NCBI GenBank assembly: GCA_951406725.2
Contig: OX597839.1
Coordinates: forward strand, 40,672,001 to 40,736,000
Reading direction: 5' to 3'
Origin: Octopus vulgaris
Lineage: Eukaryota
Length of the DNA stretch: 64,000 bases
Under the pieces are notes generated by a model. It was not told where the DNA came from and did not search any database. It saw only the letters and a program-made list of their open reading frames with translations. The translations under genes and the position numbers were made by a program. Position 1 is the first letter of the stretch. Every line of letters starts with the position of its first letter. Shown here piece after piece: positions 1,167-49,619 of this stretch.

Positions 1167-1417
1167 TTAAGTAGGTGAATGAATTATCCTAGCATGGAAA
1201 ATTCCATCAACCGATACCTGTGGTCACCATGTAGGCAATCATCAACATTTTTTGTTCGTCTTGTGGCTGAGAGAGGCTCCTTATCTTTCCTGATGAGAAG
1301 ATTGCATAATGCACCCTTTATTCCTTCGGAATAAAAGTATGCCGTCTTCGAAACATGTGTCGAGAGTAAAGGAATTTGGTTAACATCTTCGGTCGACTCC
1401 ATTCTTTCATTTATTCA
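1167..1417 (+). mobile_element. About 250-bp hammerhead-bearing insert in (TA)n
   Basis: Unique sequence between two pure (TA)n tracts with an internal hammerhead and imperfectly complementary ends. Confidence 0.65.
1281..1369 (+). ncRNA. Type I hammerhead ribozyme with long stem II
   Basis: Stem I TTATCTTTC/GAGAGTAA; core CTGATGA 1290-1296; stem II GAAGA/TCTTC enclosing GCATA/TATGC and TTTATTCC/GGAATAAA; GAAA 1350-1353; stem III ACATGTGT; GTC cleavage triplet 1359-1361. Confidence 0.75.
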
Positions 1418-2789
1418 TATATATATATATATATATATATATATATATATATATATATATATATATATATATATATATATATATATATATATATATATAT
1501 ATATACATACATATCATGTATATATATGTATATATGTATAACATATATATATATATGGATATATATTTGTGTGTAGAAAGTGCCAAGGAAATATAGTGTG
1601 TGCCTCTGCGTGTGTGTTTGTGTGAGTACGTGTATTTTTGTGTGCATGTGTGATTGTGTTAGATTAATTTCCTCCATACCATTGCGTTGACATCCTGTTG
1701 GTTAGTTTGAAATAAAATGCTCAGGTTGATTTCTTCGACGAAACCCGTCAGTGTGATGCTCCAGCATGTCTGCGATCCAATGAATGAAACAAGTAAACAA
1801 ACGTTGAGAAAGAAAGCCGAAATACATCTGCGGAATACACGGCCACTTACACGAAAATTACATAATTATTAAATTGGATCGAACAATTTATTACACATCG
1901 TCGAACGTGATGGAGATCCATTTGCCAATGTAGACACACTGTTTATGAGAATTACAAATGCATTTAACCATCTTTTATAAACAATGTTAAATTTTATATC
2001 TCTAAATATGTACGCTTCTGTATTTCTGTTCATCATATTTACGCATATATATAAATATATATATAGACTTATACATAAATATATACATATATATATATAT
2101 ATATATATATATAGATAGATAGATAGATAGATAGATAGATAGATAGATAGATAGATAGATAGATAGATACAGATATATATATATATGTATGTATGTATAT
2201 ATATATATATATATATATATATATATATATATATATATATATATATATGATTTTGTATGTATATTATGTATAAATATGTGTGTATATATATATATATATT
2301 ATATATATATATATATATATATATATATATATATATATATATATACGTATGAATATAAATATGTACGTAGAAGTGTATTATGCATGTATGTATGTATGTA
2401 TGTATGTATGTATGTATGTATGTATGTATGTATGTATGTATGTATGTATGTATGTAAGTACGTGTATATAAATATATATATATAATGTACATTATGTGAA
2501 AGTTGTTGACTGTGAAGATAAGATGAGATAATCATTGTTTTTGATGTTTCTGTCGGCTTTCATTTTCTTCACTTTTTGTTCTTTACGTTGTTGTTTTTAC
2601 GGTTTGTGTTCATGATGATGATGACGATTTCGATAGTGATGGTCTGTAGGGCTAGGTTTGGGCTGGTGCAGGTAATGGAGGCGATGAGGTTCATGGTGAT
2701 GATGATGCTGATGATGGCAATGATCGTTTTCATGATGCTTATTAAGGTGGTTACGACGATGAGCAGGAGGACGAGGAGAAGGCAGAGGA

Positions 2790-3300
2790 AGATAATGATG
2801 GTGATGATTATGATTATGACGACGACAACGATGATGACGACAACGATGATGATGATGATGATGACGACGACGATGATGATGATGATGATGATGATGATGA
2901 TGATGATGGTGATGATGATGATGATGATGGTGATGATGATGATGATGATGATGATTATGATGATATGATGGTGGTGGTGGTGATGATGATGCTGATGATG
3001 GTGGTGGTGGTGATGATGACGACGATGATGATGATGATGATGGTGATGATGATAATGATGATGATGATGGTGATGATGATGATGATGATGATGATGGTGA
3101 CGACGACGATTATGATGATGATGATGATGATGATGATGATGATGATGGTGATGATGATGATGATGATGATGATGTGATGATGATGGTGATGATGATGGTG
3201 ATGATGATTATGATGATATGATGGTGGTGGTGGTGGTGATGATGATGATGATGAAGATGATGATGATGATGATGATGATGATGATGATGATGATGATGTA
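2790..3300. repeat. (GAT)n/(GGT)n trinucleotide array
   Basis: Direct reading. Confidence 0.95.
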
Positions 3301-4597
3301 GACGATGCTGTTGGGGACGAAAAGCGGATTAATCTTATTTCACAAAATAAACTTATTTCGATTCGATCGCGGACAATAGTTAATCACACAGTACCACATT
3401 ATCCACATCTTTTCCCCTTCCATCCCTTCTTCTTCCACTATCCACCTTCATCACTACCCTACTCATGTCACTTCACTAATCCACTCTACTCCGCAAAGAG
3501 ATTATCCGCAACTTCATATCCCCCCCCCGTATATAAGCCTGCGAAACGATTTAAAAATGAACATAATACCGATATATTTCGTTAAGTGAGTGAGTGTTTT
3601 TCACAAAATATAGATTTTGAAAACAAATGTAAGCTGTAATGATGTAAGTCATGGAAACTTAAATGTTGGTACCGTTTTACAGCATATAATTAAAATAAAA
3701 GTAAATATTCTCCACTCTCTAGCATGTAATGAGTTCGCTTTTTTCTACGACAGATTATTTTAGGCTCGGAATCATATAGATCATATATATATATATATAT
3801 ATATATATATATATATATATATATGTACGACGGACTTCTTTCAGTTTCCGCCTACCAAATCCACTCACAAGGCTTTGGTGGCCCGAGGCTATCGTAGAAG
3901 ACACTTGGTCAAGGTGTCACACAGTGGGACTGAACCCGGAACCATGTGGTTGGGAAGCAAACTACTTACGACACAGTCACTCCTATGCCTATCTATATAT
4001 ATTTTTATATAGATAGATAGATAGATAGATAGATAGATAGATAGATAGATAGATAGATAGATAGATAGATAGATGTATACATATATGAATATTTATGTTT
4101 GTATATATACCGGTGTTCGGCCAAGCCTGATCTTTCTTTCTTGGTTCGGCCTTCGTCCGTGCAACATCTATATTCCTCCCTGTGCCTGTGAAATCTTGTA
4201 TCCCTGCCGTAACGCTTTATCTCCACACGCGCCAACTTAATTCAATTCGTCCTTAGTCGAAAGACACCTGTTGTTACGTCCTGTTACTTGTATTTGTGTA
4301 ACATTCTCCGTTTTTTCCGTCCTTGTTTTCGTATACATTCAGTGCTTTCTTCCAAGGAATCTAATACTCTTAGCTTATTTTTTCCTTGGGACTGGCCAGA
4401 TCGGACCAATCTCGAGTAGAACCAGCCGAAATTACAAAGATAATCTGGAACTCGACTGAGGAAAGAAAATTCCCAATGACCTGTCCTTGTTTCCTTTGTA
4501 ACGTGTATATATATATATATATATATATGTGTGTGTGTGTGTGTGTGTGTGTGTGTGTGTGTGTGTGTGTGTGTGTGTGTGTGTGTGTGTGTATGTA

Positions 4598-4908
4598 TAT
4601 AATCAAAAATAAGCAACAAGAATGAATCCGGTAATTTAGTACAATTGTTTCATACTACAACATTTTATTAAAAGCTGTAAATATTACAGCAGATTTAAGA
4701 TGCTGAGTAATCGGCATCTTAAATCTGCTGTAATATTTACAACTTTTAATAAAATGTTGTAGTATGAAACAATTGTACTAAATTACCGGATTCATCTTGT
4801 TGCTTATTTTTTATTATAATCACCCTGCATATTTTTATGGGTAACACCATACAAAATTCTGGTGCATCTAAATTAAGTGCCATATTCATTTGAATCTAAA
4901 TTGTTGCT
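4598..4908 (+). mobile_element. PLE-like fragment with about 110-bp fold-back (palindrome 4598-4818)
   Basis: Near-perfect arms around loop GTAA 4707-4710. Tail 4821-4908 is homologous to 45500-45592. Only the 3' half of a hammerhead (GAAACAATTGTA) is present. Confidence 0.7.
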
Positions 4909-49016: not shown

Positions 49017-49197
49017 GTTAATCCGAACAAGAAAACAAAAACAAAAAAACAACAACGCAAAGACGTGGAACAAAAATAGTATTATTGAACGCTCAGGAAA
49101 GAAGGGAAAAAGGGGGGTTCGACGTTTCGAGCGGAGCTCTTCGTCGGAAACATAGGAGAAGGAAAGATCCAGAGAAGGGAAGACAGAGGAAAAAATC
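49017..49197 (-). mobile_element. (TA)n-anchored repeat family, copy 3
   Basis: Direct similarity to 11069-11278; contains hammerhead 49117-49151. Confidence 0.85.
49117..49151 (-). ncRNA. Minimal type I hammerhead, U4C variant
   Basis: Minus strand GTTT-CCGACGA-A-GAGC(TCC)GCTC-GAAA-CG-TC-GAAC; GTC site. Confidence 0.68.
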
Positions 49198-49224
49198 ATA
49201 TATATACATATATATATATATATT

Positions 49225-49526
49225 GGTAAGAACGGTAAGATAACAAAAGAAAGAAAGAGACCTCAATATTATGTAAATAGAGGAAATTTATCTATAAAAT
49301 AATATGTTACAATTACTCAATAGTCAAGATAAAACTCTGAGTTTCAGATGCCGAAGTGGAAATCCACAACACCATCTCTTCGGTTATCTGGCTATATAAT
49401 GGTATTTTTTTTTTCATAGCGTTTTTTCAGATGGCCAGATAACCGAAGAGATGGTGTTGTGGATTTCCACTTCGGCATCTGAAACTCAGAGTTTTATCTT
49501 GACTACTAAGTAATTGTAACACATTA
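49225..49526. mobile_element. Fold-back element carrying two inverted hammerheads
   Basis: Arms 49300-49392 and 49434-49526; (TA)n flanks. Confidence 0.78.
49437..49499 (+). ncRNA. Type I hammerhead, U4C variant (inverted copy at 49327-49389)
   Basis: AGATAA-CCGAAGA-GATG(...GTGGATTTCCAC...)CATC-T-GAAA-CTCAGAG-TT-TTATCT. Confidence 0.68.
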
Positions 49527-49573
49527 TTATATATATATATATATAACTTAAAATTGAATAGAAGATCTGAATA

Positions 49574-49619
49574 CCACCTGATGAATGTCCTTAGAAGAGA
49601 CACGAAACAATTGTAGTGG
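49574..49619 (+). ncRNA. Type I hammerhead ribozyme
   Basis: CCAC-CTGATGA-ATGTC(CTTAGAAGA)GACAC-GAAA-CAATTG-TA-GTGG; palindromic stem III; A-C mismatch at the base of stem II. Confidence 0.72.

Follow-up and report, generated by a model that had tools for sequence, protein, structure and literature searches.

Hammerhead ribozyme inserts in TA repeats of Octopus vulgaris: truncated ends of Penelope-like elements and two likely retrozyme-like passengers

Known hammerhead retroelements and the octopus inserts

Minimal type I hammerhead ribozymes are known from the pseudo-long terminal repeats (pLTRs) of Penelope-like elements (PLEs) and from retrozymes, which are non-autonomous hammerhead retroelements. 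Here we analyse a group of hammerhead-bearing inserts in one region of the Octopus vulgaris genome. The window, by which we mean the whole stretch of DNA analysed, comprises 64,000 nt (contig OX597839.1, positions 40,672,001 to 40,736,000) of a 2.8-Gb genome (227 contigs), and is AT-rich and laden with microsatellites. A preliminary description of this DNA had proposed a guild of short, PLE-mobilised ribozyme elements living in (TA)n repeats. We find that the inserts are for the most part truncated ends of PLEs of at least three types, together with two likely retrozyme-like passengers.

The pLTR hammerheads surveyed by Cervera and de la Pena (2014, PMC4209133) share with the octopus motifs a type I fold, a short palindromic stem III, an extra base between positions 9 and 10.1, a U3-A8 variant and many families per genome, and they too occur mostly as single motifs in truncated copies, with opposite-strand pairs 100-700 bp apart. 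They differ in number, at about 2,000-9,000 motifs per genome compared with the roughly 150,000 extrapolated here, and the G3-C8 and A9C cores of two of our families (E and F, respectively) are not encountered in the available portions of that survey. Similarly, the EN+ PLE clades Neptune, Nematis and Hydra (Craig et al. 2021, PMC8557442) have in common with the elements described below a reverse transcriptase (RT) followed by a C-terminal GIY-YIG nuclease, a cysteine linker, partial tandems with an inverted 5'-truncated copy, a tail and (TA)n targets; our clade calls (Neptune, Nematis-like, Hydra) were made by motif. The supplement of that study includes an octopus family, Hydra-1_Obim, with a (TA)n preference and a hammerhead. 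Our family I is alike by eye, yet it is a different family, and the other families here are also distinct. All 34 rows of the hammerhead table in the same paper have C3-G8 and A9, unlike families E and F.

The PAc element of the green anole (Frangieh et al. 2024, PMC11167929) belongs to the Penelope/Poseidon clade and resembles the octopus elements in its AT-rich targets and in having two fixed 3' ends that fall within the beginning of the frame. In vitro, it is reverse transcribed from two internal sites after a nick in AT-rich DNA. Its C3G/G8C double change, which partly restores cleavage, is an engineered rescue, whereas family E has G3-C8 naturally. Both Craig et al. and Frangieh et al. 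call the role of the hammerhead in PLEs open.

Non-LTR retrozymes of animals (Cervera and de la Pena 2020, PMC7229834; Li, Clavereau and Pollet 2026, bioRxiv 10.64898/2026.07.22.740005) are the closest counterparts of our families C and D, with which they share a unit without an open reading frame (ORF), a type I hammerhead, a head-to-tail arrangement, a GC content under 45% and a proposed movement by PLEs; Li 2026 argues that retrozymes are PLE derivatives. Families C and D differ from them in being dispersed inserts of one to two units with PLE tails and inversions, not long arrays, and in being known here as DNA. The family D unit (468 bp) exceeds the 170-400 nt range given in PMC7229834 and falls within the 51-972 bp of Li 2026, and that of family C (365 bp) falls within the range of PMC7229834. 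As far as its available text goes, the survey of Li 2026 includes no mollusc, and in the available text of a 2026 octopus repeat annotation (PMC13282606) PLE families are listed and the word 'ribozyme' is absent.

Hammerhead motifs in the window

Each of the 12 motif coordinates named in the preliminary description was located as the start of a type I hammerhead fold, and the inserts, described there as about ten and mutually dissimilar, number 12 and fall into 10 families (A-J). Inverted partners at 25542 and 49383 bring the window total to 14 motifs. The inserts and related fragments are as follows.

1005..1119, + strand: family I 3' fragment, which breaks off within the hammerhead
1167..1416, + strand: family B insert, 3' end of a Hydra-type PLE plus a 54-nt inverted tail piece
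1285-1366, + strand: family B hammerhead, canonical core, predicted cut after 1361
9840..10378, + strand: family C insert, an inverted piece, the previous unit's end, then one whole 365-bp unit without an ORF
10104-10149, + strand: family C hammerhead, U4C, predicted cut after 10143
11069..11276, - strand: family A copy, Neptune PLE 3' end; hammerhead 11169-11203, G8 mutated to A
12510..13057, - strand: family D insert, a near-complete 468-bp unit without an ORF plus a 72-nt inverted arm
12726-12785, - strand: family D hammerhead, canonical core, predicted cut after 12732
19356..19640, - strand: family E insert, Nematis-like PLE end; motif within the inverted arm
19438-19487, - strand: family E hammerhead, G3-C8 core, one extra G, predicted cut after 19445
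25327..26078, both orientations: family F inverted insert, Nematis-like PLE end with two hammerheads
25916-25960 (+) and 25504-25548 (-): family F hammerheads, each with C9 and an additional G
31424..31990, - strand: family G insert, Neptune-type, linked via one decayed locus
31457-31494, - strand: family G hammerhead core, stem I reaching 31449-31503
31985..32260, - strand: family H hairpin insert, boundaries counted by hand, no frame linked
32043-32079, - strand: family H hammerhead, U3-A8 core, extra G, 3-bp stem I
36318..36530, - strand: family A copy; hammerhead 36424-36458 with U4C, extra A and an ACGU palindrome
49014..49200, - strand: family A copy; hammerhead 49117-49151
49225..49527, both orientations: family I inverted insert, Hydra-clade PLE end; U4C hammerheads 49327-49389 (-) and 49437-49499 (+)
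49546..49809, + strand: family J insert; hammerhead 49574-49619, canonical core, no frame linked
53447..53644, + strand: family D-related 3' fragment without a hammerhead

A strict-core scan returned 3 motifs (1290, 12779, 31490) and none in the controls, which were 60 block-wise dinucleotide shuffles and 60 more with simple repeats removed. A relaxed descriptor, which allows U4C, 3-8 swaps and one extra base beside stem II and was tuned after the motifs had been seen, found 10 motifs in the window against a shuffle mean of 0.03 (maximum 1). Three of the named motifs lie outside this descriptor: 11169, a family A copy with G8 changed to A; 25916, of family F, in which position 9 is C and stem I is bulged; and 32043, of family H, with a U3-A8 core and a 3-bp stem I. 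Doubt about the 32043 motif was dropped, as family H passes the scan at locus L339. A reading of 25916 as a point mutant was rejected, since among the first 100 listed family F matches position 9 is C in 88, A in 9 and T in 3.

Two tests made use of features that the scan did not require, namely the 3-8 pairing and stem III. With positions 3 and 8 left free, they were paired in 50 of 56 distinct matches from 976 kb of sampled and flanking DNA (C-G 39, U-A 10, G-C 1); the same scan on shuffles gave about 2.6 matches of any kind. With no requirement placed on stem III, the spacers were self-complementary in 23 of 26 distinct matches, compared with 4.4 (background) or 7.3 (same letters) expected. 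The characterization of the motifs as type I with a tiny, mostly palindromic stem III is borne out by this figure, except for family F, which has a weak palindrome. In ten copies of family B both sides had changed in 7 of 23 pairs, and the covariation score was reached by none of 500 shuffles and lay above all slid controls.

Stems I and II were present in the minimum-energy or centroid fold of all 10 motifs folded, stem III was mostly open in the predicted monomer folds, and folding z-scores were modest (0.07 to -3.5). As a monomer hairpin, stem III is predicted to be unstable (+1.8 to +5.6 kcal/mol in the six computed). The predicted stem III dimer duplex reaches -6 to -9 kcal/mol in families B, C, D, G, I and J, and is weak in families A, E and F (+1.4 kcal/mol in F). 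An unstable monomer stem III combined with dimer pairing in most families would fit the cutting of tandem transcripts, and the palindromes lend dimer cleavage support at the level of sequence. In an Rfam scan of the window, no hammerhead appeared among the best 150 of 798 listed matches.

The proposed association with (TA)n was likewise recovered, as (TA)6 lies within 300 nt downstream of 9 of the 10 window scan matches, compared with 42% of window positions. The accompanying idea that microsatellite masking would hide the inserts is not supported: they are not simple sequence and are recovered by plain DNA searches, so that such masking would not by itself conceal them.

Six families continue into Penelope-like reading frames

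Loci elsewhere in the genome were chosen as the best query matches for families A, B, C and D, and as the first exact matches on contig C1 for families E, F, G and I. An RT/GIY-YIG frame lies upstream of the hammerhead, in the same sense, in families A, B, E, F and I, as well as at one decayed locus of family G. The identity of the F, A and E frames was assigned by motifs and by BLASTP to a Pfam-positive PLE; genome-wide, candidate GIY-YIG frames number 6,136 (150 scored).

The most complete example is locus L401, where an intact 1,312-codon family F frame lies between two pLTRs and is accompanied by an inverted copy. All three hammerhead regions at this locus are 100% identical to those of family F in the window, so that a full copy, a partial tandem and an inverted copy are seen together. 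The frame (L401:1013-4948) has about 600 N-terminal residues and a long asparagine-rich stretch ahead of the RT. Overall, family F reaches a frame related to that of family E (52% identical) in 5 of 20 loci. In family E itself, at least 3 of 30 loci contain a GIY-YIG frame that scores above the Pfam cut-off; RT plus GIY-YIG occur in loci L231-L233, and the RT was seen in L232. The cysteine linker and short spacer of E and F match the Nematis rows in Figure S2 of PMC8557442, and on this motif basis we call them Nematis-like.

In at least 7 of 30 loci, family A leads, through a CA-rich stretch of about 2 kb, to a nuclease with a Neptune linker, and locus L234 shows RT motifs farther upstream; by motif, the linker fits the Neptune CX2-5CxxC pattern and long pre-GIY-YIG spacer of the same figure. 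The family G frame, Neptune-type by motif with the linker kept, was found in 1 of 30 loci. Family I is joined to a nuclease with Hydra motifs in 4 of 30 loci and carries all three Hydra marks: the CxCX5C linker, the CxxC, and the CxH around conserved E and N. Family B is joined to a distant Hydra-type nuclease in 6 of 30 loci, with CxxC and CxH present.

Within the window, no PLE frame of at least 90 codons was recognised beside the motifs, and tblastn found a sole decayed nuclease piece (39570-39868), which is similar to the Hydra-type nuclease of family I. Frames neighbouring family A at L107 and L138 and family G at L095 and L137 were considered and rejected as links.

The proposed connection of the motifs to PLEs is thus upheld by six families that run into RT/GIY-YIG frames elsewhere in the genome; taken family by family, a frame is linked to A, B, E, F, I and weakly G, C and D have no such frame at the loci sampled, and none was found for H and J. 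The window copies of the six families are best read as 5'-truncated, often inverted PLE ends, not as independent short elements. The idea of a guild of short elements fits 2 of the 10 families, the retrozyme-like C and D; 6 of 10 are truncated PLE ends, and H and J are unlinked.

Two units without reading frames

The family C unit measures 365 bp (44% GC) and that of family D 468 bp (32% GC). The longest open frame on either strand, read across the unit junction, is 82 codons in C and 80 codons in D, and the hammerhead is preceded by tail sequence of the unit itself instead of a frame. The end of one unit is joined to the start of the next in most loci of both families (C, 27 of 30; D, 29 of 30). 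Two whole hammerheads stand in tandem in 5 of 30 D loci and 1 of 30 C loci, and among these 30 C and 30 D loci no arrays beyond about two units were seen. Families C and D share the marks of PLE insertion: two preferred 3' ends (unit positions 309 and 365 in C, about 394 and 468 in D), individual 5' breaks, inversions and TA flanks. C and D are thus likely to be retrozyme-like passengers copied by a PLE enzyme.

A link of family D to an intact 781-codon PLE (L102/L121) was rejected, because D is oriented antisense to that element, in the TA run that follows it, and is missing from four other copies with 781 or 771 codons. For families H and J no linked frame was found at the loci covered, among them the extended loci L392 (H) and L391 and L393 (J).

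Two further elements were observed in passing. Another tandem family of about 363 bp, apparently without an ORF and with a U3-A8 hammerhead, occurs at L326:8480-9680 and L155 (about 500-1060), with two motifs in direct tandem plus an inverted copy. In a high-copy PLE at L121-L125 (C16, C17, C6, C9), intact 781-codon RT plus GIY-YIG frames are overlapped by another frame lying upstream, which measures up to 479 codons; the pLTR of this element contains a motif that resembles a U3-A8 hammerhead.

Insertion anatomy and a proposed mechanism

Across the inserts, 3' ends are fixed at one of two sites next to a TA run, while 5' breakpoints vary between copies. The two preferred 3' ends also occur in families E, F, G and I, and in short family F copies both fall within the first codons of the frame. 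Among 110 copies of E, I, G and F, picked by pattern and counting both members of some inverted pairs, (TA)5 lies within 330 nt downstream in 89, compared with 24% expected, and an inverted copy lies upstream in 55, in agreement with the inverted terminal arms noted earlier on many inserts.

Frame continuity, fixed 3' ends at TA, variable 5' breaks, inverted copies, junctions and palindromic stem III together form the basis of our explanation. The inserts are very probably the 3' ends of PLEs in six families, plus two units without ORFs that were likely copied by the same enzyme; the hammerheads would likely cut tandem transcripts, weakly and as dimers. Judging from PLE biochemistry (Frangieh 2024), the PLE protein would nick the TA run, and reverse transcription would begin within the RNA, at either of two fixed positions a short way downstream of the hammerhead. 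Copying would usually end after 100-500 nt and would in many cases yield a further copy in inverted orientation. Between the inferred start of reverse transcription and the hammerhead are 40-250 nt, and the hammerhead would survive most often because it is among the first pieces copied; the crowding of hammerheads would then reflect this position and not selection on each copy. Families C and D may have lost their frame and been copied from longer-than-unit RNA, either tandem or circular. Most short copies are presumably dead as ribozymes, because a single copy is without a partner and, in inverted inserts, the motif is hidden within a long hairpin.

Unusual catalytic cores

A9 is a conserved base of the hammerhead core, and the prevalence of C at this position in family F is accordingly unusual. 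Family F copies with C9 have a mean identity of 95% (n=20), compared with 87% for those with A9 (n=4), and A9C hammerhead regions surround the intact 1,312-codon frame at L401; the C9 subfamily appears to be the younger part of the family. Given that C9 characterises the youngest part of family F, cutting may be dispensable or strongly buffered in these elements. In family E, G3 and C8 are found in 49 of 52 copies anchored by their flanks alone. The G3-C8 core is present in at least 572 copies, and family F, which is young and includes an intact frame, numbers about 4,000.

The 2017 collection of Lunse et al. is said to comprise about 150,000 PLE-linked hammerhead variants. Our literature searches found no report of G3-C8 or A9C as a natural variant, and that collection of PLE hammerhead variants may contain them. 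U3-A8 and U4C are listed as natural variants (Perreault 2011, PMC3088659).

Alternative explanations

Several observations count against the interpretation of the inserts as PLE ends with two passengers. The frame link of family B is a weak similarity (23-36% identity to the family I nuclease), and that of family G depends on a single decayed locus. Pfam has no match in the 1,312-codon family F frame and did not detect RVT_1 in the RT pieces of families A and E. In family B, at least as many pairs with changes on both sides were seen in 25 of 500 shuffles, and at least as many pair types in 181 of 500. One D locus (L212) holds an RT-like fragment upstream, past a TA run and an inverted piece. 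Finally, the C and D queries included the unit start, so that the junction was favoured and a coding partner would be missed. This selection, together with the lack of arrays longer than about two units and the local tandem growth from solo pLTRs proposed by Li 2026, could suit a view of C and D as locally duplicated pLTR pieces of unsampled coding elements, not mobile units. We consider such an origin unlikely: both families show an identical junction at loci scattered over many contigs, each locus has its own 5' break and often its own inversion, and it is the unit's own tail that precedes the hammerhead. It is far less probable still that all inserts are independent, non-autonomous short ribozyme elements. 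That description holds for C and D, might be extended to the further tandem family with a U3-A8 motif at L326 and L155, and could accommodate the unlinked H and J. However, six families run unbroken into RT/GIY-YIG frames and their copies differ in 5' breakpoints, which refutes it for A, B, E, F and I and, more weakly, for G.

As to the motifs themselves, chance matches in AT-rich, hairpin-rich DNA are barely credible. Although the relaxed descriptor was tuned on the motifs and one of 21 matches sampled elsewhere (L353) is chance-like, the excess over shuffles (10 versus 0.03 in the window, 21 versus 0.13 in 400 kb) and the two tests on features outside the scan support the motifs, and we regard this reading as already refuted. 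A more substantial challenge, which we nevertheless judge improbable, is that the fold no longer cuts and is kept as a structure beside a protein-binding and priming site. In favour of it are the C9 core, which 88 of the first 100 listed family F matches carry and which occurs in the younger subfamily and around an intact frame, the core mutants that leave PAc insertion in vitro unaffected (Frangieh 2024), and the lack of cleavage in 8 of 9 Xenopus retrozyme dimers (Li 2026). On the other hand, the 3-8 pair is kept through swaps in the 56 matches and stem III is palindromic across families, which is what selection for dimer catalysis predicts. Weak cutting of tandem transcripts by dimers is the reading that we consider likely.

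Density and copy numbers

The density of roughly one motif per 5 kb given in the preliminary description is close to what we find in the window (1 per 6.4 kb) but is local. In forty 10-kb stretches at round coordinates, chosen blind to content (400 kb), the same scan gave 21 matches in 13 stretches, versus 0.13 in 15 shuffles, or 1 per 19 kb. The window is thus about three times denser than the sampled stretches, and TA sequence is 2.2 times more abundant in it. A TA run lies near 15 of the 21 sampled matches, compared with 20% expected. Extrapolation to the genome yields about 150,000 motifs (Poisson range about 90,000-225,000), a figure to be read with the caveats that matches cluster, that one of the 21 (L353) looks like chance and that family F is missed by the scan. 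Exact patterns occur genome-wide 572 times for family E (36 letters), 589 for family I (28 letters), 1,543 for family G (28 letters, two ambiguous) and 4,195 for family F (24 letters, two N), with counts of 0 for the reversed-pattern controls.

Implications for PLE ribozymes and animal retrozymes

PLE hammerheads, TA targeting and one octopus example are already known, and the findings are mostly known in kind; what is new is the scale, the PLE insertion marks on units without ORFs and the two high-copy core variants. With the basic picture of PLE hammerheads in TA repeats established, the value of this genome lies in its test cases and scale. Movement of animal retrozymes by PLEs has so far been argued from co-occurrence and sequence kinship, not from insertion anatomy. 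Here, one genome combines an intact A9C element, A9 relatives, a natural G3-C8 family and two units without ORFs, and these side-by-side variants make the need for the PLE ribozyme testable in one assay. A bolder proposition, which we put forward tentatively and with some doubt, is that this genome is the densest known natural hammerhead library (about 10^5 motifs), in which copies of a PLE family with a position-9 defect in its core outnumber those of its intact-core relatives about tenfold, the G3-C8 pair known only as an engineered rescue has become fixed in a sister family, and units without ORFs that bear every mark of PLE insertion show that animal retrozymes ride on PLEs.

Further features of the window

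Different families frequently stand nose to tail in one TA run, as at 49014-49809 in the window and at L066, L121, L137 and L138, and earlier inserts with their TA flanks seem to attract later ones. The insert at 35826-36113 is related to family H but degraded; it has an inverted arm, and its core is broken. The 3' fragment at 25030-25304 shares about 80% identity with the tail of a different PLE (L128, L129), in which the scan found no hammerhead. Further TA-flanked dispersed inserts without a hammerhead lie at 4528-4907, 31040-31375, 36597-36882 and 19062-19229, the first three with inverted arms; these are probably PLE ends cut off below the motif. The window also contains a lone tRNA-Ile (AAT) gene at 35025-35100 (Rfam, 65.7 bits).

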